Of a DNA stretch of 32,000 nt, positions 2,572 to 26,934 are shown in pieces. The notes beneath the pieces were generated by a model. That model was not told the DNA's origin. It saw only the letters and a program-made list of their open reading frames with translations, and ran no database searches. Numbering within the stretch: the first letter of the stretch is position 1; each line of letters begins with the position of its first letter. Both the position numbers and the translations under genes were made by a program. This DNA is from Candidatus Electronema aureum (lineage in GTDB: Bacteria > Desulfobacterota > Desulfobulbia > Desulfobulbales > Desulfobulbaceae), in NCBI GenBank assembly GCA_004284765.1, contig NQJD01000029.1:1387-33386 (forward strand), in the 5' to 3' direction.

Positions 2572-3327
2572 TCAGGTATTCTCCGTAGTCACCTTGATAA
2601 ACCGCTGCAAAGCCGCCTGAGCCTGCGTCTTCCCAGTTTCAGTCAGCATCAACGCAGATAAGCGGTTTAACTGCTCCTGAGTTGGTGGTTTTTCCTGATA
2701 TTCCTCAGCCATGTTGACGATCAAGTCAGCATCATATAGCACCTTAAAATTGATCGTCTCCTCAGCTCGTGGGGTGTGATGATGGCCAATAATGTCGCAA
2801 ACTTCATCAATCAGCTCTGGCTTGGCTCGGAGTGAATTGAGCAATTCTCGCGCCACTGGCGGCCCCTCGCTGTGCTGATAGCGGGCTGCTGAGGAATTAA
2901 ACTTGCGCTCGGCCTCACGGATGCCGATATCATGGAGATAGGCACAGGCCATGATCACCGACATGTCACCACCCGGCTCTTTTCTGCCGATCTGCTCGGC
3001 TTGCTCGGCCACAGCTTCAGCGTGATGAATACGCCTGCTGTCTTTGCCGAAATACTGGCGCATGGCGGCTGCAACTTTATCTTTGAACATCTCACGTTGC
3101 GCGGCAAGCAGTTCTGGCGAGAGCGAACCCAAGCACTGAGCCGCATGAGGGCAATAGGCAGCGCAGCCAAAATCCATCTTCGGATTAAAAACCTGATTAC
3201 CACAGCTCCGGCACCGCTGGCGACTGTCGTCTTTAAAGAATTCTACTGGCTGGCCACAGCTGGGGCAGCGGCTCTCAAAAACATCATCGCCGCTCCAGTA
3301 GCGGCTGTCTTGTCCAGGACATTGCAT
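2572..3327 (-). CDS. HD-domain metal-dependent phosphohydrolase with N-terminal Cys-rich zinc-ribbon region
   Basis: 251-aa ORF with a GGAGG Shine-Dalgarno 5 nt before ATG 3327. The N-terminus has CPSC-x14-CRSC plus further Cys residues. HD signature: AYLHDIGI ... IIGHHHTP. Confidence 0.75.
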   Translation of the reverse strand: MQCPGQDSRYWSGDDVFESRCPSCGQPVEFFKDDSRQRCRSCGNQVFNPKMDFGCAAYCPHAAQCLGSLSPELLAAQREMFKDKVAAAMRQYFGKDSRRIHHAEAVAEQAEQIGRKEPGGDMSVIMACAYLHDIGIREAERKFNSSAARYQHSEGPPVARELLNSLRAKPELIDEVCDIIGHHHTPRAEETINFKVLYDADLIVNMAEEYQEKPPTQEQLNRLSALMLTETGKTQAQAALQRFIKVTTENT

Positions 3328-3436
3328 GATATCCTCCTTTGGTATATATAAATTTTCACATCACGGCAAACTTATAACAGGGCAAACACGAGGGGCTTCC
3401 TTTTATTTACCCGCCGTCTTCAATATTTAAAATTAC

Positions 3437-3450
3437 TTGACATAGATCAA
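3437..3450. promoter_or_regulatory. CRP/FNR-family (FNR/HcpR-type) operator candidate upstream of hcp
   Basis: TTGACATAGATCAA matches TTGAT-N4-ATCAA at 9 of 10 positions. It is centred about 41.5 nt upstream of a TSS that would be served by a TACAGT -10 hexamer at 3473-3478. It lies in the divergent hcp / HD-gene intergenic region. Confidence 0.45.
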
Positions 3451-3533
3451 GGGAAAGAGGTCTTATTACGGGTACAGTATCGCTATACTCGTGAACCGAT
3501 ACACGCTGCAACTAAAAAATTCAGGGAGGAAAA

Positions 3534-5153
3534 ATGTATTGTAACCAATGCGAACAAACCGCCAAGGGCATCGCCTGTACCACTGCTGGAGTTTGCGGCA
3601 AAAACGGTGAGCTGGCCAATATTGAGGACGTATTAATTTACGCTCTCTGCGGCCTGTCGCTTTTTGCTGATGAAGCCCGAAAGCGCAAAATCGTTGACGC
3701 AGAGTTAGATCGTTTCACCATGAAAGCGGTGTTTTCCACGCTGACCAACGTCAATTTTGATCCAGAACGCTTTGCTGTCTTGATCAGCAAAAGTGTAGAA
3801 CTGCGGGAGGGTTTGAAGGCCAAGCTCGGCAAGATCGACTTTGCTCATCCGGCAGCGTCCTTCACCCCGGCAGACACGGTTGCTGGTCTTGCCGAGCAAG
3901 GCGCGGCCCTCAAGTTCATTGAGAATTTAGATGAGGACGTGAATATCCGTTCACTCAAGCAAACCTTGCTTTATGGTCTGAAAGGTATTGCTGCGTATGC
4001 TGATCACGCTGCCATTCTTGGTCAAGAAGACCCAGCTATTGCGGGCTTCATGTACGAAGCAATGGCTGCATTGCTGGCAGAAGGATTAACCATTACTGAC
4101 TGTGTGCCTGTGGCGATGAAGGCCGGTCAGATCAATCTGCGGGCGATGGAGCTTTTAGACGCAGGCAACACCGGCACGTATGGTCATCCGGTGCCAACTT
4201 CGGTGCCGCTGGGTCACAGGAAAAACAAGTGCATCCTGATCACCGGTCATGATCTGCGCGACCTTGATCTGCTGCTTCAGCAGACTGCTGGCAAAGGCAT
4301 TGACATCTACACCCACGGCGAGATGCTGCCCACGCACGGCTACCCAGAACTGAAGAAACATCCTCACTTCTATGGTCACTTTGGTACGGCTTGGCAGAAT
4401 CAGCACAAGGAGTTCCCGGAATTCCCCGGCCCGGTGCTGTTCACCACCAACTGTATTCAAAAGCCGCGTGAAGACTATAAAGAGCGTATCTTCACCACTG
4501 GCTTAGTTGGCTGGCCCGGCGTAACCCATCTTGAGGGTAAAGATTTCAGCCCGGTGATTGCCAAAGCTTTGGCGATGGACGGCTGGCAGGATGACGCGGA
4601 CAAAGGCAGCGTACTGGTGGGTTTTGCCCGCAACGCCGTGCTCGGTGTGGCAGACAAGGTGATTGAGGCGGTGAAGAACAAACAGATTCGCCACTTTTTC
4701 TTAGTCGGTGGTTGCGACGGAGCCAAGCCGGGCCGTGACTACTTCACCCGCTTTGTTGAGCAGGTGCCTTCAGACTGCGTGGTGCTGACCTTAGCTTGCG
4801 GCAAGTTTCGTTTCTTTGACAAAGACCTCGGCAACATTGGCGGCATTCCGCGCCTCTTGGACGTGGGCCAGTGCAACGATGCTTACTCGGCAATTCAGAT
4901 CGCAACAGCCTTGGCCGGAGCCTTCAACTGCGGCGTGAACGAGCTGCCGCTGTCGATGATTATCTCTTGGTACGAGCAGAAGGCGGCGGCCATCCTCCTC
5001 ACCTTGTTGTATCTTGGCATCAAAGATATTCGCCTTGGGCCGTCTCTGCCAGCCTTTATCAGCCCGGCAGTGCTTGCTTTCTTGGTTGCCACCTTCAATA
5101 TCAAACCAATTGCAGCCACGCCGGAAGAAGACCTGAAAGCGATATTGGGATAG
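3534..5153 (+). CDS. hcp: Hybrid cluster protein (hydroxylamine reductase / NO-stress protein)
   Basis: 539-aa ORF with a GGGAGG SD. The N-terminal Cys-x2-Cys-x8-Cys-x5-Cys cluster (MYCNQCEQTAKGIACTTAGVCGK) is followed by full-length Hcp-like sequence (GHDLRDL, TTNCIQKP, LVGGCDG, DVGQCNDAYSA). Confidence 0.92.
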   Translation: MYCNQCEQTAKGIACTTAGVCGKNGELANIEDVLIYALCGLSLFADEARKRKIVDAELDRFTMKAVFSTLTNVNFDPERFAVLISKSVELREGLKAKLGKIDFAHPAASFTPADTVAGLAEQGAALKFIENLDEDVNIRSLKQTLLYGLKGIAAYADHAAILGQEDPAIAGFMYEAMAALLAEGLTITDCVPVAMKAGQINLRAMELLDAGNTGTYGHPVPTSVPLGHRKNKCILITGHDLRDLDLLLQQTAGKGIDIYTHGEMLPTHGYPELKKHPHFYGHFGTAWQNQHKEFPEFPGPVLFTTNCIQKPREDYKERIFTTGLVGWPGVTHLEGKDFSPVIAKALAMDGWQDDADKGSVLVGFARNAVLGVADKVIEAVKNKQIRHFFLVGGCDGAKPGRDYFTRFVEQVPSDCVVLTLACGKFRFFDKDLGNIGGIPRLLDVGQCNDAYSAIQIATALAGAFNCGVNELPLSMIISWYEQKAAAILLTLLYLGIKDIRLGPSLPAFISPAVLAFLVATFNIKPIAATPEEDLKAILG

Positions 5154-5191: not shown

Positions 5192-5668
5192 TCAGTCCTT
5201 ATTCCGAACCGTTATCACCTCGGCCTTACGAAGAACCGTGTTCCGCGCTGCGTCAAAGTAGCCGCGTTTCAGCACTGCAAGGATTTCTTCGTTCTCCTGC
5301 TCAGGGACGCTTTGCGTGTCCACTACCACACATTGTTCAACCTTGGCTCGGCGATCAGGGAAATGTAACGGCTCAATTTGGCGAGAACCGAGCAAACGGA
5401 GCAGCTTGCGTTGCACGGCTCTCATGCTGTTGAGCAGACCTTGGCTTGTTTTGTCTAATGCCTCCTGTTTGCGGCGGATATTTTTTTCAATGTTGTCAAA
5501 AACATCCAGCACCTCAAATAACTCGACGAACAGCTCGTGCTCCCGATGCAGACAAAGTTCCTCTTGCTCCTTCACTGACTGCTTCAACTCGACGATTTCT
5601 CGCTGAAAAGACACTAACTTTTCCCGCAGCAGATCACCGGGACTACTTGTCTTCTCTCCTGTTTTCAT
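5192..5668 (-). CDS. GrpE-like nucleotide exchange factor (short form)
   Basis: N-terminal coiled coil ending in ELFEVLDVFDNIEKNI (GrpE ...llpvlDnlerAl region). The C-terminal beta domain carries LKRGYFDAARNTVLRKAEVITV (GrpE GY..-..vlRpA.V.V motif). ATG 5668 is preferred over the ORF-track TTG 5677. The start lies 5 nt after the stop of the upstream J-like ORF. Confidence 0.7.
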   Translation of the reverse strand: MKTGEKTSSPGDLLREKLVSFQREIVELKQSVKEQEELCLHREHELFVELFEVLDVFDNIEKNIRRKQEALDKTSQGLLNSMRAVQRKLLRLLGSRQIEPLHFPDRRAKVEQCVVVDTQSVPEQENEEILAVLKRGYFDAARNTVLRKAEVITVRNKD

Positions 5669-5673
5669 TATGC

Positions 5674-5934
5674 TCAATCAAAAATCTCCAGCCGCTTGAG
5701 AGCATCAGCACTCAGCGGTTTCTCTCCCCTAACCGGCTGTCGCAGCAGTGGTTCAAGATCGGCAAAATAAATGAACGCCAGCACGGGCCGAGCTGATGGG
5801 TCCATCAGCTGTCGCCGAGCTTCGGCAATTTCGTATGCTGAATGCTGCTTTTCCCGTAACGCTAAGGCAGCGGCCTGCATGATTTCTTGTGCCGATGCTT
5901 CTGGGCCGATATTTAGTATTTTAAAGGGATTCAT
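5674..5934 (-). CDS. Small J-domain-like protein lacking the HPD tripeptide
   Basis: 86 aa. NPFKILNIGPEASAQEIMQAAALAL mirrors J-domain helices I-II (d.Y.iLgv...As..eIk.Ay..la). ARRQLMDPSAR mirrors helix III-IV (A...L.Dp.kR). No HPD is present. It overlaps the TPR gene end by 14 nt and is followed by the GrpE-like gene. Confidence 0.45.
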   Translation of the reverse strand: MNPFKILNIGPEASAQEIMQAAALALREKQHSAYEIAEARRQLMDPSARPVLAFIYFADLEPLLRQPVRGEKPLSADALKRLEIFD

Positions 5935-7612
5935 GCCGCGCCTCTATCCGCAATCCATCAAGAACGCGCCTGATCCGCCGTACCGCGCCGTGACTGGAGT
6001 CAACCGAGCTAACGCTGTCTAATAGCTCATTTAGCGTGAAAACCGCTGCTTCCTGATCCGCATAATCGCCCCGCTCAATCCGTGCCGCTACCTGCCGGGC
6101 AGTTTCAAAAAATTGCTCAACTGCCTGTGGAAAACGGCTGGCTGTGGCGATGCGGGCTGCTTCGGCAAAGCAGTCCCGGTCAAAGGCTTCGCCTATCTCA
6201 GTCAGCGCAAGGTCGCGGCGTACTTGGTCAAAAATCATTTGGGCAAAGTCATCGTTGGGATTCAGCGCAACCGCCTTTCTCATTGCAGCGTCGAGCAGTT
6301 TTGGCGATGCTTCCTCGCTGCTGCGCAACCGCACGACCTGATTGGTTAGGGTTGAGCAAAACACAGCACCCGTCTCTGCATTTTCCGGCAGAGTCAGAAT
6401 ACCTAAGCAAGCGGCTAATGCGGTACCGTCCTGATTGTCATCTCGCTCTATTGCCGCGAGTAGCTGTTTCTCCAGCTCTGCTGTCCAATGTGCTGGGCCA
6501 TTAATCAGAATTTGCTCCGCTTTCCGGCACTGACCTCTGTACAGATAATGCAGCCCGCAGGCTGTTCTCACCTGCGCCGCACCCCAAGCGACAAAGGGAT
6601 CATCGATTTCTTCTAATTCCACCAGCGTGTCCATCGCACCGTCGTAATCACCCTCTCTGACCAGCAGGAGAGCCTGTGCCGCTGATGAATAGACTGCGCC
6701 AGCGGCCATCCATTTGCTGCTATCAGCAAAAGCATCCCGGCTCTTTTGAATCAAGATGAAAAGCTGATCAGCAATCTTGGCCTGCAACGCCAGTGCCGGT
6801 GTAAAGATCGGCATTGCGGATAATCGGCTCATCCGTCGCAGCAAGGCAAGTTCCTCCTCCCACTGCCAGAGCAAAGAACCACCGTTGTTTAGTTGCCGTG
6901 CTGCTTGCCTGCGCAGCACGTCCACGCCAAAATCAAGCAGGGCCTGCCGCTGCGGCTCAGACTGTGGCCCAACCTCTGGGTGAAAAAGCAGCGATAGACA
7001 GCAGTTGATGAAATGCCGCGCTTGCGCCGTCGGAATCGTTATGTCTGCTTCCATCATGAGCTGGCAAGCGGCCTTGGCCTGCACGGCCAGCGCGGTAGGC
7101 TGAAGCCAGTCGGTCTCATCAGCCGAAGCAAAGATTTCTTCTATCTGTTCTTCCTGCCAAAGCCGAGCCAAACGCAGGCTGCGACAGCGAGTCAGCAGCC
7201 CGCCACCACTCGGCAGATAAGCCAAGGAAAATTCCTCCAACAGCTGGCGAACTTCAGCTTCCTGTTTCAGTGGATTTTCATCAAGGCGGCAATGCAGTTC
7301 CTCAATCAGCAACAAGCTGACCTGTTCTTTTTGAACAATAAAATCAGGATGAGTGCAGTCAAGCTGCCGCCAGAGCCGCAGGCAAGCAATAGCATCGCCC
7401 AGCTTCACCTGAGCAAAACCGGCATGATAGAGATCAGCGGGAGCGGATAGGTTTGCCTCGGTATAGGCATCTGCCGCCTGCTGCCACTGTCCGGCCAGCA
7501 GAGCATAGCGGGCTATCTGGAGGAATTGGGTCGGATCAGGATAAACCGTGACCTTAGTTCTGCAAAATTTCCTAACCCATGATAGAACAACAGCAAAAAC
7601 CTTGCCTCTCAT
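5921..7612 (-). CDS. Large all-helical TPR-like repeat protein, function unknown
   Basis: 563-aa ORF with an ATG start and a GGAAG purine tract upstream. The composition is A/L/Q/E-rich and repetitive-helical with TPR-like segments (e.g. ARYALLAGQWQQAADAY). No catalytic motif was recognised. Confidence 0.6.
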   Translation of the reverse strand: MRGKVFAVVLSWVRKFCRTKVTVYPDPTQFLQIARYALLAGQWQQAADAYTEANLSAPADLYHAGFAQVKLGDAIACLRLWRQLDCTHPDFIVQKEQVSLLLIEELHCRLDENPLKQEAEVRQLLEEFSLAYLPSGGGLLTRCRSLRLARLWQEEQIEEIFASADETDWLQPTALAVQAKAACQLMMEADITIPTAQARHFINCCLSLLFHPEVGPQSEPQRQALLDFGVDVLRRQAARQLNNGGSLLWQWEEELALLRRMSRLSAMPIFTPALALQAKIADQLFILIQKSRDAFADSSKWMAAGAVYSSAAQALLLVREGDYDGAMDTLVELEEIDDPFVAWGAAQVRTACGLHYLYRGQCRKAEQILINGPAHWTAELEKQLLAAIERDDNQDGTALAACLGILTLPENAETGAVFCSTLTNQVVRLRSSEEASPKLLDAAMRKAVALNPNDDFAQMIFDQVRRDLALTEIGEAFDRDCFAEAARIATASRFPQAVEQFFETARQVAARIERGDYADQEAAVFTLNELLDSVSSVDSSHGAVRRIRRVLDGLRIEARHESL

Positions 7613-7626
7613 TGGGTTGCTTCCAT

Positions 7627-7655
7627 TTGACAGAACGAGATTTTCCTGTCACTAT
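7627..7655 (+). promoter_or_regulatory. Sigma-70 promoter candidate for the hdeA-like gene
   Basis: TTGACA (7627-7632), a 17-nt spacer, then CACTAT (7650-7655). It lies about 55 nt upstream of ATG 7712, which has a GGAGG SD at 7702-7706. Confidence 0.4.
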
Positions 7656-7711
7656 CTTTATACGGTTTAGCCATTTTTCAACATATTCTATCAAACTTCA
7701 CGGAGGATTTT

Positions 7712-8038
7712 ATGCGTAAAACAAAGAAAGCAGCACTCTTAGCCATGCTGCTGTTGTTATCGATAGTTGTCGTGACAGGTGTTCAAGCCGCAGAAAAAGA
7801 GATTAAAAAAGACGAAAAGGTAGATATGGCTACCTACACCTGCGCTGATCTTCTGGCTGAAAACGAAGACGAGGTTGGCATGATTCTATTGTGGGTTGAT
7901 GGCTATTTGAGCGGTAAAACCAACGACACGGTCATCAACATGACCTTTATCGGCGAATTAGCTGAAAACGTCGGGAAAAAATGCGGCGAAAACGGAAAAG
8001 CCAAATTACTCGACGTGGTTAAAGAACTAACGGAATAG
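7712..8038 (+). CDS. HdeA/HdeB-family-like periplasmic protein (signal peptide)
   Basis: 108 aa. The signal peptide is MRKTKKAALLAMLLLLSIVVVTGVQA. The mature part has YTCADLL...LLWVDGYLSG...KKCGENG, i.e. the two-Cys and W.dGy pattern of HdeA-like acid/unfolding chaperones. Strong SD. Confidence 0.55.
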   Translation: MRKTKKAALLAMLLLLSIVVVTGVQAAEKEIKKDEKVDMATYTCADLLAENEDEVGMILLWVDGYLSGKTNDTVINMTFIGELAENVGKKCGENGKAKLLDVVKELTE

Positions 8039-8053
8039 CCCCGAATCGCTAGT

Positions 8054-9391
8054 TCAGCGGAGAATAATTTTGACCGTCTTGCCCGGTATGACCTCCTGAT
8101 TGCCGTAAAAAATCATGCTTGAATATCTGGGCAGAAAAAATCGAGCATAGATGGAACGCCACGTCTCGTCGGACCGCACTTGGTATTTCCAGAGTATGAG
8201 GCCCTCGCGCTGTTCAATCTTGCGTTGATAAAAGGCGGCAGCCTCGCGGCGGTCAGTAAAAAGTCGCACCGAGCTGCCCTTTCTGATGAAGCCGAGGAAA
8301 ATGTGGGGGTTCTGCTCCATTACCACCGGATAATATTTGCGGTTGCCGTAGAACCGCTCGGCAATGTCCCAAGCATTTTCTCCGTCCTTGACTAAATAAG
8401 AGAACGTTCCTCCGCGCTGTATTGGCGCGAAATTCTGCACCTGTTCAGCAGCAGGAGTACCGACTGTTTCCATCGCTATCGACTTCACCCGGTGCTTCCT
8501 GTACTTAGGCGTAAGAACTACAGGCGGCGTTTCCGGTAGAACGGCCAGTTCAGCATTGTTTTCCGATGGAATAGCCTGCGCTACGGCTAAAGCCTGTGGT
8601 TCAGCTACTACCACAGCCGCTTCTACTTCTGCCGGATTTGCTGATTTTTCCTCCGCTGGTGCCAATGGCACTGCTTGCTCCGTTGTTTTTTCAACAGGAA
8701 CTGGTGGTGGCATCTTACTGCCTAACAACTCTACCTCGGCTGTGTCCGGGAGTACCTCCTCTCGAACAACTTTTACAAGTTTTGTCGCCTCGTTCTCAGC
8801 TTCTACCGTTTTTTTCTGATCTACAGGAAGCTCATCCGGCACAAGGGCACGCTCGCTTTTTTCCTTGGCGACAACAGGCACAGCATTCTCCTCTGTATTC
8901 TTGCTGGAAGTCTGCTCGTGGTTTTCGCCTACAAGTTCCTGCTTTGCTGCGACAGTTTCCGTCTCTCGCTCATCCAAGATGCGCACCTGAGCATCAATAT
9001 GAATTTTGCTTTCAGGAGGCAGCACCGGTTCGACAACGTTTTTATTTTCTGGCGCGGATGACAATGACTCTTCGTGCTTTTTCTTCATTGCCGCCCGCTG
9101 TTCCGCCGCCTTGAGTTCGGCTAACTGGTGGTCTAATTCAGACAAACGACTTTTCATGCTCACTGATAGACCAGCAAGGAGCAACAGGACAGCAGTCACA
9201 ATGATCGCGATAGCAACCCAAGGAAAACGACGTTTGGGTAGCAGAGCTGCTGCTGTTTTGGCCGCTGCTGGGTCAGAGAGCGAATCTAAGGCTTGAAAAC
9301 AGGTCAGGTCTGCATCGCACTGAGGGCAGCTGCCGCAGTTCGGCGGTAAGCCGTGCCGTCCACAAACCGGACAGGTGTGCGTCTGACTCAT
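8054..9391 (-). CDS. Zinc-ribbon / single-TM / coiled-coil / low-complexity / LysM-like envelope-anchored protein
   Basis: 445 aa with these elements in order:
- N-terminal CPVC-x8-CGSCPQC.
- TM helix FPWVAIAIIVTAVLLLLAGLSV.
- Coiled coil (SELDHQLAELKAAEQRAA).
- About 200 aa of E/P/A/V-rich spacer.
- Two degenerate LysM-like units (YLVKDGENAWDIAERFYG..., YQVRSDETWRSIYARFF...).
Its start overlaps the Hsp70 gene stop (ATGA, 9388-9391). Confidence 0.7.
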   Translation of the reverse strand: MSQTHTCPVCGRHGLPPNCGSCPQCDADLTCFQALDSLSDPAAAKTAAALLPKRRFPWVAIAIIVTAVLLLLAGLSVSMKSRLSELDHQLAELKAAEQRAAMKKKHEESLSSAPENKNVVEPVLPPESKIHIDAQVRILDERETETVAAKQELVGENHEQTSSKNTEENAVPVVAKEKSERALVPDELPVDQKKTVEAENEATKLVKVVREEVLPDTAEVELLGSKMPPPVPVEKTTEQAVPLAPAEEKSANPAEVEAAVVVAEPQALAVAQAIPSENNAELAVLPETPPVVLTPKYRKHRVKSIAMETVGTPAAEQVQNFAPIQRGGTFSYLVKDGENAWDIAERFYGNRKYYPVVMEQNPHIFLGFIRKGSSVRLFTDRREAAAFYQRKIEQREGLILWKYQVRSDETWRSIYARFFLPRYSSMIFYGNQEVIPGKTVKIILR

Positions 9392-11703
9392 TTGCGAATA
9401 TCTCGGTGAATTTTCTGAATGCTGCGACCGTGCTGGTCCAGCACCTCTTCGACTTCTGGCATCACTGCCAGCACCTGTTCAAAACGCAGCTCCTCGCCCG
9501 CCTCAGCCGAGGCCAGCACCTCTGCTGCCGCCCGCATAAAACGCTTGGCCTTATCTGGCTCAGTTTGGTGGCAAATTTCGCAAGCATTCTCAATCTGCGT
9601 CAAGGCGTGTACCACCTCCAGTCCCGGATTCTCTAAAACATTGGACAGCTCATCCATTGCCTGCATGGTTTCCTCATAGCTTCCTTCTTCATCGGTCTCG
9701 CGCAGCTGCTGGATTTTTCTCAAAATGCGTTCCTGTAAGGCTGGCGCGATCAGCATTCCATAATCCGCCAACATGCTTTCTGCGTAATAAATCTGGGTTA
9801 GCGGAGCTTCCTCGGCTTCGGAGATGCGCACCGCCTTGTTGATCTTTTCCTCCACCCGACGGCAAGCAGCTCCATCAACCTCACCGGTTTGCGCATCAAC
9901 CACTTTATGGAGCGCGCGAATAATACCTTTAGCCCGACAGAGCAAATCGGCCACCGTATAGGTAGAGCAGCCTTTGCGGTCAGCCTCATTAATGATCTGC
10001 TCAAGGCGCAGAAAGAGTCGCTCATCCGCCTTGCCGCGCGAGAGCGTACCTTCCACCTTCCCCTTGAGTTGGCCGACTAAGGCCGCCTGCACTGAAACCA
10101 AATTATTTTCATCGATGTTCAAAGTGACAGCAAGACGCGGCAATTCTTCCGTCTGCGGCGCGGTTGTGCTATCTCGATCGATGCCTAACCAAAGGTCGCC
10201 GATGCGTTCCTCTTTGTTATTGACCACATTATAAAATTGCATATGCACCAGCTCTTGTTCGGCATCAACAAGCTGAAAAATCTCCGTGCTGGAGCAGGGT
10301 AATACACTGTTTTTTTTCACCAAGAGAAAACGCTGATCATTCTCCAAGCGGATGAAGTAGTCATGGGCCGCTGCATGAACGATATCGACCAGACCATGCT
10401 TGGTTGTGTAGGTTGCGAGATTAAATTGGCAATGCGGGCAGTTGGCGTTATGCTGGGATGTTTCCCCACCGCAGCTCGGACATTCCAGCGTATCTGCTAA
10501 TCGATGGCTGAGAATAGCTGCACCTTCGGCCACTGCCAACATAGGCCGCTCATGGAGTAACACTTTGTCTGCACCAAATTCCTGCCGCAGCGTCTTGATT
10601 ACACAGGGAATACGCGAACTACCGCCGACTAAAAGCACATGGTCAATCAAATCCGGGCTGAAATACGCCTCGGCCAGTAAATTTCGCAGCAATCGGAGCA
10701 TGGTTGTCAGCAAAGGAGCCAGCATCTCCTCTAACTGTTCTTGGCTCAATTCTGCTTCAATATGAATCGGATCGCCGTCCTCGTCCGTGAGCAAACCAAG
10801 CACAGCAATGCAGGCTTCGGGGCTGTCGCTGAGGGCAATTTTAGCCTTTTCTGCCGCCGTTTTTAGTTCGGCAAGCAAACGATTGCGCTGACTTGGCTCC
10901 AGCCGTCCGAGCAGAGCGCGGAGGCGAACATCATCCATGCCTTCCTTGGCCGCTGTTTCTCGCAGGGCATGGCTAATGATCAGGTTGTCGATGTCCTCGC
11001 CACCTAACCACATGTCGCCGCCTTTGGCCATTTCAATGATCTGGCCGCCGCTGATCGCCAGCAGCGAGAGGTCGAGAGTGCCGCCGCCGAAATCAAAAAC
11101 CAGCACGGTTTTGCCTTCGTCACTAGATATCTGATCCACGCCAAAGGAAATGGCTGCTGCTGTCGGCTCGGACAAAAGACGGCTGACTTTGAGACCAGCC
11201 AAAGCAGCAGCGGTGCGGGTGGCGTGCTTTTGTTTATCGTTGAAATAGGCAGGCACGGTGATCACTGCTGTCTCTACCTCATCACCGAGGATACGTTCGG
11301 CATCAGCCTTGATTTTAATGAGAATCTGGGCTGAAATTTCTTCTGGGCTGAACTCTCGTCCTCCGGCAGCAATCGCCAAACTGTTCTGAGAACCGCTGGA
11401 ATAGGGCGAGAGCGGACAGCGAAATCTGCCGTTTTTAATCAGTTCTTGCACTTCTGGATCGTGAAAATTGCGTCCAATTAGCCGCTTGACCGCTGTGATA
11501 GTGTTCTCCGGTTCCTGCCGCAGCCATTCCAAAGCGTGGCGACCGACGATGAACTCTGGTTTGCGTATCAGCCGTTTACGAACAGTGACGCAAGAAGGAG
11601 TGATGAAGTCACCTTCTGCATTTTTCAGCACCTCAACCCGCACTTTTTTAATCGCGGCAGCGGAATTGGTAGTTCCCAGATCAATGCCGATGGATTTTTT
11701 CAT
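9388..11703 (-). CDS. Atypical Hsp70-superfamily ATPase (771 aa) with inserted zinc ribbon and long helical tail
   Basis: Actin-fold nucleotide motifs are IGIDLGTTNS, DFGGGTLDLS and LLVGGSSRIP. CPSC-x10-CPHC (nt 10429-10482) sits right after the NBD (AVAEGAAILS). A beta-rich SBD-like segment follows, then about 200 aa of helical C-terminus. ATG 11703 (MKKSIGIDLG) is preferred over the ORF-track GTG 11763. Confidence 0.85.
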   Translation of the reverse strand: MKKSIGIDLGTTNSAAAIKKVRVEVLKNAEGDFITPSCVTVRKRLIRKPEFIVGRHALEWLRQEPENTITAVKRLIGRNFHDPEVQELIKNGRFRCPLSPYSSGSQNSLAIAAGGREFSPEEISAQILIKIKADAERILGDEVETAVITVPAYFNDKQKHATRTAAALAGLKVSRLLSEPTAAAISFGVDQISSDEGKTVLVFDFGGGTLDLSLLAISGGQIIEMAKGGDMWLGGEDIDNLIISHALRETAAKEGMDDVRLRALLGRLEPSQRNRLLAELKTAAEKAKIALSDSPEACIAVLGLLTDEDGDPIHIEAELSQEQLEEMLAPLLTTMLRLLRNLLAEAYFSPDLIDHVLLVGGSSRIPCVIKTLRQEFGADKVLLHERPMLAVAEGAAILSHRLADTLECPSCGGETSQHNANCPHCQFNLATYTTKHGLVDIVHAAAHDYFIRLENDQRFLLVKKNSVLPCSSTEIFQLVDAEQELVHMQFYNVVNNKEERIGDLWLGIDRDSTTAPQTEELPRLAVTLNIDENNLVSVQAALVGQLKGKVEGTLSRGKADERLFLRLEQIINEADRKGCSTYTVADLLCRAKGIIRALHKVVDAQTGEVDGAACRRVEEKINKAVRISEAEEAPLTQIYYAESMLADYGMLIAPALQERILRKIQQLRETDEEGSYEETMQAMDELSNVLENPGLEVVHALTQIENACEICHQTEPDKAKRFMRAAAEVLASAEAGEELRFEQVLAVMPEVEEVLDQHGRSIQKIHRDIRK

Positions 11704-11729
11704 ACCGTGTCTGTTCGGAGCAGAGGGGA

Positions 11730-12806
11730 TCAGAGGGCAGAAAGGGTAAAGCTGAAGACGCACCCTCTTTCAGCTTGATTTTCAGCTCGAAGAACACCAC
11801 CATGTAGCTCAATGATTTTTTTCACCACGGCCCAGCCGAGACGGCTATCTTTTCTACTGTCCGCCGGACCTGCTGGATCAGCAAACAAGTGTTCCAGCTC
11901 TTTTTCGCTCAAGCCCGGCCCTTGATCAGCAACCGCCACGCGGACTGCGCTGCCTGCCTGCTCCGCGCTCAAGACAACAACTGAGCCAGCCGGAGAATGC
12001 TTAACCGCGTTGCTCAAGAGATTATCTACCGCTTGTCGAATGCGGCTTGGATCAAGATTGAAAATCGGCAGCGTAGTCAGACGCTCAACAATGACGATTT
12101 GTTTCTTTGCTGCTGCTTGTTGCTGTAGTTGCGCTGCCTGCCGAAGAACTTCTGTGAGCGAGGCAGGCTGCCTGTTGATCTTAAAGGTACCATCACCAAC
12201 GGCGGAAACATCGAGCAAGTCGTTGATTAGGCGCTGCATGGCTGTGGCCGTCTCGTTAATGGCCAGCAGGTGCGTATCTATATTACTGCGCATTTCAAAA
12301 AAACTGCTATCCATCAGCATTTCGGTCATGGTGATAATGTAGCCGAGCGGATTGCGCAAATCATGGGCAGCAATGCGCAAAAAACGATCTTTAATCTTAT
12401 CTAATTCTAACAAGCGGTCGTGTGCCTCAACGAGCCGCCTGCCCACAGAAATTCGGCTGTGCAGTTCACCAATATGCACCGGTTTGCTGAGAAAATCATG
12501 CGCCCCATGATCTAAAGCATGAACCACATCCTCCTTGTCGCTTCTACCAGTGAGTAGAATGGTGTAGATCAGCGGCACAGCACCTTTTTCCTGCGCATTG
12601 AGCCGAGAGCAGATTTCTACCCCATCTAAGCCGGGCATCATCCAGTCTAACACCGCGATTCGGGGTGGTTCTGGGCTGCGCAGGATGGTCATGGCCTCCA
12701 GTCCATCCGCAGCCTCAATCACCTCATAGCCCCAGCGGGCCGCGCAATGCCGGAGCAAAATTCGGGTAGAAAGTTCATCGTCGGCGATCAGTAGTTTCAT
12801 GGACAT
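11730..12806 (-). CDS. Hybrid response-regulator receiver / histidine kinase (REC-HisKA-HATPase_c), no sensor domain
   Basis: REC domain: LLIADDE...VLDWMMPGLDG. H-box: RIAAHDLRNPL. N box: LLSNAVKHS. G boxes: DQGPGL and GWAVVKKIIELHGG. The stop lies 26 nt upstream of the Hsp70 ATG. Confidence 0.85.
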   Translation of the reverse strand: MSMKLLIADDELSTRILLRHCAARWGYEVIEAADGLEAMTILRSPEPPRIAVLDWMMPGLDGVEICSRLNAQEKGAVPLIYTILLTGRSDKEDVVHALDHGAHDFLSKPVHIGELHSRISVGRRLVEAHDRLLELDKIKDRFLRIAAHDLRNPLGYIITMTEMLMDSSFFEMRSNIDTHLLAINETATAMQRLINDLLDVSAVGDGTFKINRQPASLTEVLRQAAQLQQQAAAKKQIVIVERLTTLPIFNLDPSRIRQAVDNLLSNAVKHSPAGSVVVLSAEQAGSAVRVAVADQGPGLSEKELEHLFADPAGPADSRKDSRLGWAVVKKIIELHGGVLRAENQAERGCVFSFTLSAL

Positions 12807-12876: not shown

Positions 12877-13093
12877 CACGAACAGCCAGTAACTGCGAGC
12901 ATCTTCCGCAGATATTTTTCCTGCCAGCAAGTTGCCTGTTGCTCATTTTCAGAGGTATCATATATGATGGCAGCCTAATTTTGGTGTATTATACTCAGAC
13001 AGCGGCGGATTGTATATATTTTGGAAAAAATGAGCCAGCAGCGGCGCATCTTGCGCAGTTATTCAGCCTTTGTTTTTTGGCAAGAACAAAATC

Positions 13094-13690
13094 ATGACCA
13101 CTGATACCGGATTTTTGCTCTACGCCGCTCTGTACCGATTGGCTGTGCTGGCAGTTGGTGCGTTGTCTATTTGGCTGGGCTTTCGTTTGTTCAGCAATGC
13201 CAAGCAAGAGAACAGCTCGGCTGATGGCTCCGTCAGCGCGGAAGGCGGTGGTTTCAAGCTGGCCTTCACCAATTTGCTGCCCGGAACTTATTTCGCGTTG
13301 TTCGGCACGGTGATCATCAGCGTAATGCTATGGAAAGGCGAGCCGCAATTCTTTCAGCAGGAACTCAAGGAGCTGACCAAAGGCGAGAAGACAGTCACGA
13401 CAACAGAATTGCGCACCAGCATAGAACTGGAATGGAAAAAGCTGGATAAGTCCGGCATCACGCTGGCGGAAGCAGCCGAGACTATGGAAACCATTGCCAA
13501 GCTGCTGCGGCAGGAAAACCGCATCGGCGAAGCAGTGGCGATGGCAAAGCTGGCGGCTTTGTACGGCAAAGAAGAAGGCAGGGCGGAGCGTCTTGATTTG
13601 CTGGCTGAACTGCTGCGGGCAAATGGCAATGAGGAGGAGGCAGTGCAAACCGAGCAGGCCGCCGAATCCTTGCGGAGGCCAGAGAAATGA
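13094..13690 (+). CDS. Two-TM membrane protein with helical (TPR-like) C-terminal half, unknown function
   Basis: Hydrophobic helices are LLYAALYRLAVLAVGALSIWLGF and GTYFALFGTVIISVMLW. The C-terminal part is helical and E/A/L-rich. ATG 13094 is preferred over the ORF-track TTG 13070. Its stop overlaps the caspase gene start (ATGA, 13687-13690). Confidence 0.6.
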   Translation: MTTDTGFLLYAALYRLAVLAVGALSIWLGFRLFSNAKQENSSADGSVSAEGGGFKLAFTNLLPGTYFALFGTVIISVMLWKGEPQFFQQELKELTKGEKTVTTTELRTSIELEWKKLDKSGITLAEAAETMETIAKLLRQENRIGEAVAMAKLAALYGKEEGRAERLDLLAELLRANGNEEEAVQTEQAAESLRRPEK

Positions 13691-15090
13691 AGCTGCGCGG
13701 AAGACGCTTGCTGCTGCTGATCGCGCTGATCGCGCTGGCCGTGCTGCCTGCGGCGGCGCAGGCGCAGACAGCTTCCGGCTTTGGCCGTTGTTTTCATGCC
13801 GTGGTGATTGGGTGTCAGAATTACAAGCATCTCAGGACGCTGAAAACGCCGCTGGCTGATGCTAAAGCGGTCGCTAAGGTGCTGAAAGAGCAGTATGGCT
13901 TCACGGTGAACTTGCTGTTGGACAAAAACAGGGACGAAATTATGCTGGCCCTGTCCGAGCTGCGCAAAACCATGACTGCGGAAGAGGACAGCCTGCTGAT
14001 CTACTACGCCGGACACGGCTATTTGGACGAGGCGAGCGGAGCGGGGTACTGGCAGCCCGTGGATGCGGAGAAGGACAACATTGTTTATTGGCTTCCGACC
14101 TCAGAAATCAGCAATTTGCTCAGAGCAATCCGCGTTCGGCACGTGCTGGTGGTGGCAGATTCTTGCTATTCAGGGGAAATCGTCATGCGCAAATCAGAGG
14201 CGCAGCTTCCCGCCGCCGTCAGCAATGACGAATGGCTGCGGCGGATGCAGGCGAAACGGTCGCGCCAAGCCTTGACTTCCGGCCTGAAAGAGCCTGTAAT
14301 GGACGGCGGGGGCGGCGGCCATTCGATCTTCGCCAAGGCGTTGCTGGAGGCATTGCGGGAAAACCGGCAGATACTGGACGGAACAAGACTGTTCAGCCTC
14401 ATCAAAGATCCGGTCTCGAACAACGCCCTGCAACAGCCCGTGTATGACTCCATCCCGATGACCGGGCATGAGATGGGAGATTTTCTGCTGGTGCCGAAGG
14501 AGTTGCAGAAGGGAGGAATTCAGGCGCAGCCGGAGCACAAGGCGGATTTGAGTTTTCTGCAACGCAGCGGCGGTAACAGCGCAGCCACGCTGCCAGAAAA
14601 ACCGCGCCAGAATGCCGACCTACAGAAAGGCAGAACTATTGGGCAATATATTGATTATGGCGACGGCACGATAACTGACACGAAAAGCGGCTTGATGTGG
14701 AAACGCTGTCCAGAAGGTTTATTCGGCGTGAACTGCGAAGAGGGCAAGATTGAAACCTATAAATGGGATGATGTGTTTCAGCGTTTCAAGAATATCGAAT
14801 ACGCAGGCTATTCTGACTGGCGGCTGCCGACCATTGCTGAACTGAAAACTTTGGTATATTGCAGCAATGGAGTTAAAGACAAAGATTACGGTCGCTGCAA
14901 CGAGGGGTCTGAAGAACCGACGATCAATCAACAGGCTTTTCCGAATACTGAGGCAAATTACTTTTGGTCCGGGTCGCCGCATGCCGACAATTCGGACCTT
15001 GCGTGGTACGTCCATTTTGCCTATGGCAGTTCCTCCATCAGCAACCGCGTCAACAGCGATGCGGTACGTCTGGTGCGCGGCGGATGGTAG
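13687..15090 (+). CDS. Secreted caspase-family (peptidase C14) protein fused to a C-terminal DUF1566 (Lcl C-terminal, C-type-lectin-like) domain
   Basis: Sec signal peptide: MKLRGRRLLLLIALIALAVLPAAAQA. Caspase His/Cys dyad contexts: LLIYYAGHGY and VLVVADSCYSGE. The C-terminal 150 aa carry TDTKSGLMWKRC...YSDWRLPTIAELKTL...YFWSGSP...AWYVHFAYG...AVRLVRGG, the DUF1566 pattern. Confidence 0.85.
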   Translation: MKLRGRRLLLLIALIALAVLPAAAQAQTASGFGRCFHAVVIGCQNYKHLRTLKTPLADAKAVAKVLKEQYGFTVNLLLDKNRDEIMLALSELRKTMTAEEDSLLIYYAGHGYLDEASGAGYWQPVDAEKDNIVYWLPTSEISNLLRAIRVRHVLVVADSCYSGEIVMRKSEAQLPAAVSNDEWLRRMQAKRSRQALTSGLKEPVMDGGGGGHSIFAKALLEALRENRQILDGTRLFSLIKDPVSNNALQQPVYDSIPMTGHEMGDFLLVPKELQKGGIQAQPEHKADLSFLQRSGGNSAATLPEKPRQNADLQKGRTIGQYIDYGDGTITDTKSGLMWKRCPEGLFGVNCEEGKIETYKWDDVFQRFKNIEYAGYSDWRLPTIAELKTLVYCSNGVKDKDYGRCNEGSEEPTINQQAFPNTEANYFWSGSPHADNSDLAWYVHFAYGSSSISNRVNSDAVRLVRGGW

Positions 15091-15114
15091 GGACACGGCA
15101 TGCCGTGTCCCTAC
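15087..15114. repeat. REP-like 28-bp perfect palindrome (copy 1)
   Basis: GTAGGGACACGGCATGCCGTGTCCCTAC. Its TAG is the stop codon of the caspase gene. It lies 31 nt upstream of the RAYT ATG. The same core recurs at 15419-15446. Confidence 0.8.
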
Positions 15115-15144
15115 GGAATATGGTAATTATCACAGCACGATGTC

Positions 15145-15693
15145 ATGATATTCAACCCGGAAATCTACCGCCGCCGCTCCATCCGTCTGCCCGGTTACGA
15201 TTACACCAGAGCGGGCGCGTATTTCATCACCGTATGCGCCAGCGGCAAGGAATGCCTGTTCGGTGCGGTGGAAAACGGGCAAATGCGGCTGAATGATGCC
15301 GGTCGGATTGCCGATCAATGCTGGCACGACATTCCATTGCATTTTCATCATGCGATATTGGACGAATGGGTGGTAATGCCGAATCATGTGCATGGGATTG
15401 TTGTTCTTGACCATTGTCGTAGGGACACGGCATGCCGTGTCCCTACGACAATGGCGACAGCGGAACAATTTGGCCGTCCAGTTGCTGGCTCGATTTCAAC
15501 CATTGTCCGTTCATTCAAATCCGCTGTCACCCATCATCTCAACAAATTGCATGGTGCCGTCGGCGAAAAAATCTGGCAGCGCAATTTCTACGAACACATC
15601 ATCCGCAATGAAACAGAATTGCACGGCATCCGCGAATACATCCAGAACAATCCCGCCAAATGGGAATTGGATGAACTGCATGTCGCAGTGTAG
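15145..15693 (+). mobile_element. REP-associated tyrosine transposase (RAYT; IS200/IS605-type Y1 HUH transposase)
   Basis: 182-aa ORF containing RRSIRLPGYDYTRAGAYFITVC, the HUH motif MPNHVHGIVV, the catalytic-Tyr region WQRNFYEHIIRNE, and YIQNNPAKW. It is flanked 5' by the REP palindrome. Confidence 0.85.
15411..15454. repeat. 44-bp perfect palindrome inside the RAYT ORF (REP copy 2, extended arms)
   Basis: CCATTGTCGTAGGGACACGGCATGCCGTGTCCCTACGACAATGG is its own reverse complement. It encodes DHCRRDTACRVPTTMA in the linker between the HUH and Tyr motifs. The central 28 bp are identical to 15087-15114. Confidence 0.85.
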
Positions 15694-15747: not shown

Positions 15748-17481
15748 ATGACCAACCGAGCCATACTGCTCCGGCTGCGCGACGTGCTGCGGCCTTACAG
15801 CGGCAAGCTGCTCATCGCCATGGCCGCGATGATCGTAGTCGCCCTGTTCAACGCCGCCCAAGCCTACATGGTGCAACCGCTGCTGGACAAGATTTTTTAT
15901 GAAAAGAACGCTGCTTGGCTGACCGCGCTGCCGCTGGCCCTGCTGGCGATTTTTTTCGTCAAAGGGGTGTTTTATTTCTTCTATTCCTACCTGCTCGAAT
16001 GGGTTGGGCAGTCGGTGATCAAAGACCTGCGCAACAGCCTCTACGGCCATCTCCATGAGCTGTCGATGGGCTTTTTTTACAAGAATTCCACCGGCGAACT
16101 GATCTCGCGGATTATGAACGACGTGGCCATGCTCCAAGGCACGGTCTCGCACGCCCTGATCTACGTCCTGCGCGATTTTTTCAGCGTGGCCGGGCTGCTG
16201 GTGGTGATTTTTTACATGGACTGGCGGCTGGCCTTGGTCTCGCTTGTTTTCATTCCGATGGCCGCAGTGCCGATTGTGGTTTTCGGCAAGAAATTCCGCC
16301 GCATCAGCACCCGCTACCAGCAGGGCATGGGCGAGGCGAGCAATTTCCTCAACGAGACCATCCGGGGTGTCCGCATCGTCAAGGCCTTTTGCGCCGAGGA
16401 GCAAGAAAAACACCGCTTTGCGGCCAAGATGCAGCAGCTTTTCGACACCCTGATGAGCGAGACCCGCTACCGCAGCCTTGCCCATCCACTGATTGAATTT
16501 CTCGGCGGCATCGGCATGGCCCTGATCATCTGGTTTGGCGGCAGCGAGGTGCTGAAGGGCAACGCCACGCCCGGCACCTTCATGTCTTTTCTCACCGCTT
16601 TGGTCATGCTCTATGAGCCGATCAAGGGCGTGAGCAAGATCAATTCAACGGTGCAGTCGGGCATGGCTGGCGCGGCCCGCATCTTCGCGCTCTTGGACAC
16701 CGAGCCGGAAATCCGCGAGAAAGCGCAGCCGGTCGAGCTGCCGCCCTTCAGCCGCCAGATTGAATTCCGCAAGGTCAGCTTCGCCTATCAGCCCGGCGAG
16801 CTGGTGCTGCGCGATGTCAGCCTGACAATTGCGCGGGGCGAGGTGGTGGCCTTGGTCGGGCCGTCGGGCGGCGGCAAAAGCTCCTTGGCCAGCCTGCTGC
16901 CGCGCTTTCACGAGGTCACTGACGGCGCAGTCCTGCTCGACGGCCACGATCTGCGCGACCTCAGCCTGCGTTCGCTGCGCAGCCAGATTGCCATTGTCAC
17001 CCAGCAGACGATCCTGTTTAATGACACCGTGCGCAGCAACATCGCCTACGGCAGCCCGGATTGCACTGAGGAAGAGATCCGCCGGGCCGCCGCCGCTGCC
17101 TTTGCCTTGGATTTCATCGAAGCCTTTCCGCAGGGCTTTGACACCGTGATCGGCGAGTCTGGCGTGCGACTCTCCGGCGGCCAGCAGCAGCGGCTGTCCA
17201 TTGCCAGAGCGATCCTCAAGAACGCGCCGATCCTTATTTTAGATGAAGCCACGTCCGCGCTCGACACCGAATCTGAGCGCAAGGTGCAGCAGGCCCTCGA
17301 CAATCTGATGAAAAACCGCACCACCTTGGTCATTGCCCACCGCCTTTCGACCATCAAGAACGCCGACCGCATCGTGGTCATGCAGGACGGACGCATTGCC
17401 GAGGAAGGCGACCACGACAGCCTGCTCCGGCGCGGCGGCATCTACGAGGGGCTGCACAGCTTGCAGCACGCCGCCCGATGA
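15748..17481 (+). CDS. msbA: Lipid A export ABC transporter, fused permease/ATPase (MsbA-type)
   Basis: 577 aa with an N-terminal six-helix TMD. Walker A: GPSGGGKSS. ABC signature: LSGGQQQRLSIARA. Walker B: ILILDEATSALD. It heads an LPS-core operon, joined to the next gene by an ATGA overlap. Confidence 0.8.
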   Translation: MTNRAILLRLRDVLRPYSGKLLIAMAAMIVVALFNAAQAYMVQPLLDKIFYEKNAAWLTALPLALLAIFFVKGVFYFFYSYLLEWVGQSVIKDLRNSLYGHLHELSMGFFYKNSTGELISRIMNDVAMLQGTVSHALIYVLRDFFSVAGLLVVIFYMDWRLALVSLVFIPMAAVPIVVFGKKFRRISTRYQQGMGEASNFLNETIRGVRIVKAFCAEEQEKHRFAAKMQQLFDTLMSETRYRSLAHPLIEFLGGIGMALIIWFGGSEVLKGNATPGTFMSFLTALVMLYEPIKGVSKINSTVQSGMAGAARIFALLDTEPEIREKAQPVELPPFSRQIEFRKVSFAYQPGELVLRDVSLTIARGEVVALVGPSGGGKSSLASLLPRFHEVTDGAVLLDGHDLRDLSLRSLRSQIAIVTQQTILFNDTVRSNIAYGSPDCTEEEIRRAAAAAFALDFIEAFPQGFDTVIGESGVRLSGGQQQRLSIARAILKNAPILILDEATSALDTESERKVQQALDNLMKNRTTLVIAHRLSTIKNADRIVVMQDGRIAEEGDHDSLLRRGGIYEGLHSLQHAAR

Positions 17482-26847: not shown

Positions 26848-26934
26848 TACAAAATAAATGGAGTGTTGGATAGAGCTTTAACTTGCGTCATTTCTGTTTG
26901 ATTATTTTTGTTCTGTTCTGCATTTGAGAAAAAC

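Follow-up and report, generated by a model that had tools for sequence, protein, structure and literature searches.

Bacterial Hsp70 biology rests on three types, DnaK, HscA, and HscC, of which HscA and HscC have no GrpE signature (PMC8215388). Other DnaK derivatives are reported never to occur without a bona fide DnaK, and in a 2026 review they are described as unexplored "dark matter", guessed to assist DnaK (PMC13580251). Hsp70s are also found in the GAP1-N2 GTPase-centred conflict systems, in combination with GrpE and FNIII-DnaJ/TPR proteins (Kaur, Burroughs, Iyer, and Aravind, 2020; PMC7159879). Here we analyze a 32,000 nucleotide (nt) stretch of contig NQJD01000029.1 (the window) from Candidatus Electronema aureum, a freshwater cable bacterium, in which the gene for an Hsp70-like ATPase is clustered with genes for a bitopic zinc-ribbon/transmembrane (TM)/LysM anchor, a TPR solenoid, a J-domain-like (J-like) protein, and a GrpE-like protein (Table 1). 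The TPR-like and J-like proteins of the window are 100% identical to Candidatus Electronema aureum proteins. Comparison of related loci indicates that the five genes are a real co-inherited set, distinct from dnaK-dnaJ-grpE, which gives one DnaK derivative a defined and conserved set of partners and so makes its function directly testable. The present annotation ("molecular chaperone DnaK" or "hypothetical") mislabels the ATPase and conceals the module.

The conserved unit runs from the Hsp70-like ATPase through the anchor with its zinc ribbon, TM helix, and two LysM domains, to the TPR solenoid, the J-like protein, and the GrpE-like protein. A search of one genome per species with an alignment of the C-terminal region of the Hsp70-like protein (A2, six sequences) returned 80 loci, in which open reading frames (ORFs) were assigned by iterated phmmer and hmmsearch. 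The five genes follow one another in this order on a single strand at 56 complete loci, a recurrence that far exceeds the chance expectation. Only four loci (L005, L006, L008, and L083) are incomplete despite sufficient downstream DNA; the remaining non-complete loci are truncated by contig ends. The genes abut, with median intergenic gaps of 0, 10, 1, and −4 nt in gene order, and at 79 loci an anchor homologue is the next gene after the Hsp70 gene (median gap 0 nt). The five proteins diverge in step with one another (correlations of pairwise divergence, Spearman 0.55–0.84), as would be expected of genes inherited as a unit. Separate gene calls with Pfam marks reproduced this arrangement in several genomes, among them Desulfonema magnum, Electrothrix aestuarii, and a Spirochaete metagenome-assembled genome (MAG). 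The first-pass annotation had proposed a six-gene system that included a kinase, and had named a lack of co-localisation of the orthologues in other genomes as grounds for refutation; co-localisation holds for five of the genes and fails for the kinase, which is confined to the Electronema lineage, and a six-gene unit was rejected on that ground. Its view that the layout differs from dnaK-dnaJ-grpE agrees with the co-inheritance of the ATPase, anchor, TPR, J-like, and GrpE-like genes. We found no published description of the five-gene set in the literature and no PADLOC match for it; the first-pass annotation likewise did not recognise the gene set as a characterised system.

The 80 loci are mostly from Desulfobacterota, with further members in Spirochaetaceae, Spirochaetales, Elusimicrobia, Verrucomicrobia, Victivallales, the myxobacterial Sandaracinaceae, and the gammaproteobacterial Chromatiaceae, Methylococcales, and Thiotrichales. 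Complete cassettes come from Desulfobacterota, Spirochaetes, Elusimicrobia, Verrucomicrobia, several Gammaproteobacteria, and one myxobacterium. Two MAGs, Desulfotignum sp. S24.Bin131 (L065 and L072) and Desulfobacteraceae bacterium IS3 (P0051 and P0072), each carry two distinct Hsp70-like copies, at least partly with the cassette. Some family members with unexpected taxa lie on very short contigs, e.g. L030 (2.6 kb, in a Promethearchaeota bin) and L047 (1.5 kb, Victivallales); the archaeal assignment of L030 may be a binning artefact.

The Hsp70-like protein has a predicted intact ATPase site and a predicted DnaK-type substrate-binding beta domain. The equivalents of DnaK D8, K70, E171, D194, T199, and D201 in its nucleotide-binding domain (NBD) are invariant in all 30 members compared (the E. 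coli DnaK reference for this comparison was entered by hand and agrees with the PDB alignments), as expected for a member of the Hsp70 superfamily, with its actin-fold NBD and phosphate-1, phosphate-2, and adenosine motifs. Searched against the PDB with phmmer, the NBD matches DnaK and mortalin, and a weak second stretch (residues 461–628) falls on the mortalin substrate-binding domain (SBD). The C-terminal profile A2 matches the SBDs of Ssc1, Hsc70, and DnaK (E 2e-4 to 1e-2), with the Ssc1 SBD as the best PDB match, weak but specific evidence for an SBD-beta followed by a helical lid. The SBD-beta aligns to that of DnaK over its whole length, with an invariant Q433 equivalent and retention of the pocket positions F426, V436, and I438. 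In the alignment with DnaK, the segment that holds the GrpE-signature loop is kept, unlike in HscA and HscC. Two DnaK elements are altered: the VLLLD linker is substituted, and D211, a J-domain contact of DnaK, is deleted. The catalytic and pocket residues, the GrpE-signature loop, and the homology of the SBD and of the GrpE-like protein make an active Hsp70 cycle plausible.

Outside the NBD, residues 400–771 mark out a distinct subfamily: searched against 1.84 billion representatives, they match 108 clusters (50% identity), and full-length members have 720–790 residues. Desulfobulbaceae and Desulfobacteraceae have many full-length homologues with 50–99% identity. A zinc ribbon between NBD and SBD occurs in 50 of the 56 cassettes and is missing from many more distant members, and the extreme C terminus carries a conserved tail, I-[YH]-K-D-I-x-[KR]. 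The NCBIfam equivalog cut-offs (NF001413, TIGR02350, and TIGR01991) are missed by a wide distance, both for DnaK (340 versus 648 bits and 334 versus 823 bits) and for HscA (261 versus 709 bits), and the NCBIfam DnaK and HscA matches are confined to the NBD.

The GrpE-like protein is recognized by the Pfam GrpE profile (PF01025, E 8.7e-8, 32.5 bits, cut-off 25.8) over profile positions 30–163 of 165, and its family profile (A4) matches a solved GrpE structure (4ani, E 2.2e-7). Its best score against the housekeeping GrpE equivalog of NCBIfam is 21.3 bits, compared with a cut-off of 137.

Assignment of the J-like protein is supported by profile and structure searches. Against the Pfam J-domain profile (PF00226) the window protein scores 14.4 bits (E 0.042, cut-off 27.8), over residues 3–21 only, and so falls short of a J-domain by profile; 31 of 54 homologues also give DnaJ matches, all of them under threshold (best E 8.4e-5). 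In hhalign, helices I–III align with those of the E. coli DnaJ J-domain (E 2.3e-4, probability 44%; DnaJ reference entered by hand) with a 10-residue gap over KYHPDRNQGD. No HPD motif occurs anywhere in the family, in which the loop between helices II and III has four residues (K-Q-H-S here, R-K-Y-S in the family consensus), and the C terminus carries a conserved L-x-x-L-x-[IL]-F-D motif. The AlphaFold 2 (AF2) model (mean predicted local distance difference test score, pLDDT, 81.5; >88 for residues 1–50) has four helices (3–7, 15–28, 33–44, and 49–57) with an antiparallel II/III hairpin. In Foldseek searches with this model the top matches are almost all J-domains, at a probability of 0.9–1.0 for most of the top 40, with TM-scores of 0.42–0.6, a root-mean-square deviation mostly of 3–5 Å, and E values of 0.08–1, weak for a domain of this size. 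The profile of the family searched against PDB sequences was uninformative, returning mostly designed coiled coils, with J-domains at E 0.5–1.3 only. These observations support a J-domain fold from which the HPD loop has been deleted.

The anchor is predicted to have its N terminus in the cytoplasm because basic residues precede its single TM helix. The four cysteines of its zinc ribbon are invariant in 55 homologues, 20 of which match Zn_ribbon_3, and LysM (PF01476) is matched by 50 of the 55 (best E 6e-14), in two copies per alignment consensus. The family profile (A5) matches solved LysM proteins including TsaP and Kbp. By itself the window anchor has no Pfam LysM match and a weak NCBIfam LysM match (E 0.0026); it keeps the conserved LysM positions Y332, T339, W341, Y348, G351, N361, G408, and G437.

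For the TPR-like protein, the AF2 model (pLDDT 90.8) is all-helical, with 29 helices. The models of the TPR-like and J-like proteins rest on shallow homologue alignments (27 and 12 sequences). Foldseek matches to the TPR model include TPR subunits of the anaphase-promoting complex/cyclosome (APC/C), P58IPK, and Tom70/71 (E ~1e-4), with TM-scores below 0.2, i.e. a generic likeness. The family profile (A6) matches a consensus TPR (E 8e-15), mostly through an N-terminal region that the Electronema protein has shortened. TPR_2 and TPR_19 are each found in 33 of 53 homologues, among which no other domain type appeared in Pfam searches; the best Pfam match of the window protein itself is TPR_2, under threshold (E 0.044). 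Taken together, model and profiles support a cytoplasmic TPR-type alpha-solenoid. NCBIfam has no model that matches the TPR-like or the J-like protein. The searches bear out the first-pass description of an ATPase with intact nucleotide motifs, a junction zinc ribbon, and a long helical tail (put there at ~200 residues, seen here as ~225), and lend profile and structural backing to its GrpE, LysM, TPR, and HPD-less J-like assignments.

In its components, the cassette resembles DnaK-DnaJ-GrpE: both have clustered genes for an Hsp70 with all the catalytic NBD residues and an SBD-beta, a GrpE-fold exchanger, and a J-fold partner. It differs in the junction zinc ribbon, altered linker, and ~225-residue helical tail of the Hsp70, in a J partner of only 86 residues with neither HPD nor client-binding domains, and in the addition of an obligatory LysM membrane anchor and a TPR solenoid. 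An alternative is that the Hsp70-like protein is a co-chaperone of the housekeeping DnaK, such as an Hsp110-like exchange factor or disaggregation booster (cf. PMC13580251). The protein has indeed diverged from DnaK, its linker is altered and its lid extended, and a cassette with no HPD J protein may depend on host factors. However, dedicated GrpE-like and J-like genes would be superfluous for an exchange factor, the catalytic and substrate-pocket residues are fully kept, and the membrane anchor is obligatorily linked; we regard this explanation as very improbable.

The cassette shares with HscC-DjlB/DjlC of E. coli and with HscA-HscB the character of a specialised, non-essential Hsp70 paralogue with co-encoded dedicated co-chaperones and, with HscC, a membrane-localised partner (the tail-anchored DjlB/DjlC; PMC8215388). 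HscA and HscC lack the GrpE signature and have no exchange factor, whereas the cassette Hsp70s retain this loop and come with a GrpE of their own. The HPD motif absent from the J-like protein is present in DjlB, DjlC, and HscB, and in HscC-type systems the membrane anchor is the J protein, whereas here it is the LysM protein. By these sequence features, the cassette appears to belong with specialised Hsp70 systems such as HscA-HscB and HscC-DjlB/C, from which it is distinguished by its GrpE, lack of HPD, anchor, and TPR protein. The mitochondrial PAM motor (mtHsp70/Ssc1, Tim44, Pam18, Pam16, and Mge1) is similar in its tethered Hsp70, GrpE homologue (Mge1), membrane scaffold, and HPD-less Pam16. 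The cassette lacks an equivalent of the HPD-bearing Pam18 and a translocase channel, and its anchor is unrelated to Tim44, so the resemblance to PAM is best regarded as an architectural and functional analogy rather than membership.

The explanation that we favor, and consider probable, is that the cassette encodes a specialised envelope-tethered Hsp70 machine, separate from the housekeeping DnaK, which would act on envelope-associated clients. A housekeeping role is disfavored because the ATPase and the GrpE-like protein score far under the DnaK and GrpE equivalog cut-offs, and because a bona fide DnaK is reported to be present wherever DnaK derivatives occur (PMC13580251). In the proposed mechanism the anchor would hold the machine at the inner membrane and, via LysM, at peptidoglycan; the translational coupling of the ATPase and anchor genes through an ATGA overlap suggests that their products are made in equimolar amounts and may form a stoichiometric complex. 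The ATPase would bind and release client segments in an ATP cycle, which the GrpE-like protein would reset by nucleotide exchange. Because the HPD motif is missing, the J-like protein is unlikely to be a canonical ATPase activator; it would more likely be an adaptor or regulator docked at the J-site, as is Pam16 in the mitochondrial import motor. The TPR solenoid may be a client- or partner-binding platform, perhaps recognising the conserved C terminus of the ATPase or that of the J-like protein. The likely role of the machine, and the one that best suits its architecture, would be to assemble, remodel, or sense the state of a protein or complex associated with the envelope.

Several observations weigh against the envelope-tethered machine. 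The equivalent of R167, another J-domain contact of DnaK, is retained in just 20 of the 30 members, and the cassette has no J protein with an HPD motif to trigger ATP hydrolysis. Neither within the cassette nor regularly next to it is there a gene for a client, an effector, or an envelope machine, so that its role is read from the domains alone. At the site in two Electronema species (Electronema sp. JC and E. halotolerans; L005 and L006) the GrpE-like gene is absent, in L006 after position 14185, and the close relative UBA5173 (L008) lacks everything past the anchor and HdeA genes (after position 6800); the full five-gene set may thus not be obligatory in the Electronema lineage. With L083, a delta-proteobacterial MAG that has the Hsp70 gene alone, these loci (L005, L006, L008, and L083) are cassettes that have decayed or been rearranged. 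In L005, opposite-strand TatC- and TatA/B-like genes follow the cassette (13733–15126).

A bolder extension of the envelope-tethered machine, which we offer tentatively and think rather doubtful, is that the family would constitute a fourth prokaryotic Hsp70 class beside DnaK, HscA, and HscC: an inner-membrane, peptidoglycan-anchored motor that cycles without the HPD mechanism, with the J-like protein, TPR solenoid, and zinc ribbon in place of J stimulation. By analogy, it would be a counterpart of the Tim44/Pam16/Mge1 motor, pulling or holding envelope proteins from the cytoplasmic side. The cassette raises the questions of whether a productive Hsp70 cycle is achieved with an HPD-less J-fold protein, what role a dedicated second GrpE has, and why the machine is tied to peptidoglycan.

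The genes that flank the cassette are heterogeneous. In a sample of 102 flanking proteins (~45 loci), each Pfam family is represented at most twice, clustering of flank families is limited to close relatives, and flank clustering, Pfam, and PADLOC revealed no recurrent accessory gene. One 252-residue flank cluster was considered as an accessory gene and rejected, as it consists of ABC-transporter ATPase-type ORFs at unrelated positions; its member in the window is the MsbA-like gene (15748–17481). The Hsp70-like family has no match among IMG/VR viral contigs or PLSDB plasmids, and carriage by phages or plasmids was rejected on this basis.

The unrelated flanks and the patchy cross-phylum spread suggest horizontal transfer, and together with the two copies in some MAGs they are consistent with an anti-phage or conflict system, in which LysM would sense wall damage or injection, the Hsp70 and TPR proteins would form an NTP-dependent thresholding switch, and the output would come from an unlinked effector or the neighbouring caspase. 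Occasional neighbours also fit such a function (type III CRISPR RAMP genes in Desulfonema magnum, HepT/MNT pairs, and sporadic PADLOC matches), as do the divergently adjacent caspase-Lcl_C operon of the window and the Hsp70, GrpE, and DnaJ/TPR themes of the conflict systems described by Kaur et al. (PMC7159879), which likewise unite a non-housekeeping Hsp70, its own GrpE, and TPR/DnaJ-bearing partners in one operon. Those systems, however, have a TRAFAC GTPase and FNIII-repeat proteins as their hallmarks and are found mainly in Actinobacteria and Firmicutes; the cassette is found in other phyla and has a LysM anchor, and Pfam searches found neither a GAP1-N2/DO-type TRAFAC GTPase nor FNIII in the cassette or its recurrent flanks. 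The cassette also lacks any effector domain (nuclease, protease, TIR, or pore-former), none of its six proteins in the window, the kinase included, matches a PADLOC-DB 2.0 model (only the neighbouring caspase does), the flanks show no excess of defence genes, conservation of the cassette does not extend to the caspase operon, and the family is missing from IMG/VR and PLSDB. On balance, a defence function seems unlikely.

Two further accessory Hsp70s invite comparison. CnuD of the CoCoNuT systems (PMC11090510) similarly has an Hsp70-like NBD and SBD joined to helical repeats (HEAT), but its ATPase motifs are degenerate and it is linked to a McrBC-type GTPase/nuclease, whereas the motifs of the cassette protein are intact and no McrB or McrC is present. 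SglK of Myxococcus xanthus, with the GrpE homologue GrpS, and StkA are non-heat-shock Hsp70 paralogues that affect the cell surface. The sglK and grpS genes are linked in an operon. A paralogue of the SglK type acts in exopolysaccharide, fibrils, and social motility (PMC8265645). In contrast to the cassette Hsp70, which is far more diverged and has another gene set, SglK is a near-canonical DnaK of the PRK00290 type that complements E. coli dnaK.

The ORF coordinates, gaps, and overlaps of the six minus-strand genes, re-derived here, are those of the first-pass annotation (Table 1). Its REC-HisKA-HATPase kinase is also confirmed, with three domains above the Pfam cut-offs (Response_reg, E 4e-23; HisKA, E 1e-11; HATPase_c, E 7e-21); the Pfam scan found no sensor or TM domain in it. 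A kinase orthologue lies directly upstream of the Hsp70 gene only at Electronema-lineage loci L004–L008 and at L062, and the kinase appears to be an addition of the Electronema lineage, outside the conserved cassette. At the metagenomic locus L085, the GrpE-like gene is directly followed by genes (6594–9762) for a hybrid HisKA-HATPase-REC kinase and a response regulator that consists of REC only; the hybrid kinase is unrelated to that of Electronema, and this looks like a second, independent association of the cassette with a two-component system.

These kinases bear on a possible role in trans-envelope signalling, in which LysM would report the state of peptidoglycan and the Hsp70 cycle would hold or release the zinc ribbon of the anchor, or a regulator bound to it, much as DnaK does with sigma-32, the output in Electronema passing to the REC-histidine kinase. 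The bitopic anchor, with its cytoplasmic zinc ribbon and periplasmic LysM domains, resembles anti-sigma and sensor proteins, and two-component genes adjoin the cassette both in Electronema, 26 nt upstream, and in L085. They do so at a minority of loci only, and no DNA-binding or sigma-factor gene is linked to the cassette. We give this signalling role a low probability; it overlaps with the envelope-tethered chaperone and does not exclude it.

The cassette of Ca. E. aureum also differs locally from most others. Its anchor and TPR genes are 441 nt apart, compared with a median gap of 10 nt at other loci, and the intervening DNA contains an opposite-strand gene for an HdeA/HdeB-family periplasmic (acid-stress) chaperone that the first-pass annotation had overlooked. 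Among all related loci, an HdeA homologue occurs elsewhere only in L008, the closest relative, at the same position. In this lineage the insertion appears to leave the cassette as two separate transcription units, and because it is shared only with L008, the two-operon layout is best explained as a recent local interruption; the two-operon architecture proposed earlier is therefore an accident of this lineage, the five genes abutting elsewhere. Protein lengths in cable bacteria (loci L002, L004–L016, L018, and L073) likewise depart from those of the other loci: the TPR protein is shortened (median 534 versus 688 residues), and the anchor has a longer periplasmic linker (median protein length 384 versus 290 residues). 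It is tempting to speculate that linker length is tied to the unusual periplasm of cable bacteria. For the GrpE-like gene, an alternative TTG start at 5677 would give a protein of 161 residues.

Table 1. Genes of the Hsp70 cassette and its local additions in the window, with the domains of the Hsp70-like ATPase and the anchor (aa, amino acids)
Feature	Position in window (nt)	Strand	Residues	Remarks
REC-HisKA-HATPase hybrid kinase	11730..12806	-	358 aa	Cytoplasmic; Pfam
Hsp70-like ATPase	9388..11703	-	771 aa	From ATG; 26 nt after kinase stop
Hsp70-like ATPase: NBD	10495-11703	-	1-403	PF00012 residues 5-402, E 9e-104
Hsp70-like ATPase: zinc-ribbon insertion (CxxC...CxxC)	10414-10494	-	~404-430	NBD/SBD junction
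Hsp70-like ATPase: SBD-beta-like domain	10069-10413	-	~431-545	Weak SBD homology
Hsp70-like ATPase: helical C-terminal domain	9391-10068	-	546-771	~225 aa; conserved end tail
Bitopic anchor	8054..9391	-	445 aa	ATG overlaps Hsp70 TGA (ATGA)
Anchor: cytoplasmic zinc ribbon		-	7-25	C7, C10, C22, C25
Anchor: TM helix		-	~55-79	KRR before it; from sequence
Anchor: periplasmic linker		-	After TM helix	~235 aa, E/A/V/P-rich; from sequence
Anchor: two LysM domains	8057-8404	-	~330-445	Homology
HdeA/HdeB-family gene	7712..8038	+	108 aa	Signal peptide; PF06411 E 7.2e-17
TPR-type alpha-solenoid	5921..7612	-	563 aa	441 nt after anchor
J-domain-like protein	5674..5934	-	86 aa	14-nt overlap with TPR gene
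GrpE-like protein	5192..5668	-	158 aa	From ATG at 5668; 5-nt gap after J-like gene

In the window, the cassette lies between the LpxK and LpxC genes on one side and, on the other, the divergent caspase-Lcl_C operon, the MsbA-like transporter gene, and genes for lipopolysaccharide (LPS) glycosyltransferases. The earlier description of this caspase and lipid A setting is correct as to the neighbours; neither is conserved with the cassette, and a functional tie to the caspase operon or the lipid A genes was rejected for that reason. The operon (13070–15090, plus strand) encodes a 206-residue protein of no assigned family and, after a 4-nt overlap, a 467-residue caspase (Peptidase_C14) with a C-terminal Lcl_C/DUF1566 domain, which scores 80 bits against the NCBIfam "caspase, EACC1-associated type" model, under its 140-bit cut-off. 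The two look like a conflict-system gene pair, and at other loci neither the operon nor the 206-residue partner is conserved beside the cassette. A 182-residue ORF at the edge of the operon (15145–15693, plus strand) matches only the C-terminal half of an IS200-like Y1 transposase and is probably a transposase remnant. A 707-residue protein (22165–24288, minus strand) has a C-terminal FGE-sulfatase domain (E 2e-54) preceded by ~480 residues with no assigned domain, and its gene is the second of this type within 10 kb of the caspase; FGE-sulfatase domains of this type are binding modules in conflict systems of multicellular bacteria (PMC7159879).

Two genes are located between lpxC and the cassette (2572–5153): one, on the minus strand, encodes a 251-residue HD-domain protein that carries a zinc ribbon at its N terminus, and the other a hybrid-cluster protein (prismane, 539 residues). 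With these genes and the cassette intervening, the lipid A/LPS cluster is interrupted by ~13 kb of unrelated genes. The G+C content is 0.61–0.67 over positions 16000–21000 and 26001–27000 (MsbA-like, Wzy_C-glycosyltransferase, and heptosyltransferase genes), compared with ~0.50–0.55 elsewhere, and falls to 0.41 at a DegT-type aminotransferase gene, which suggests that the LPS genes are a mosaic acquired horizontally.

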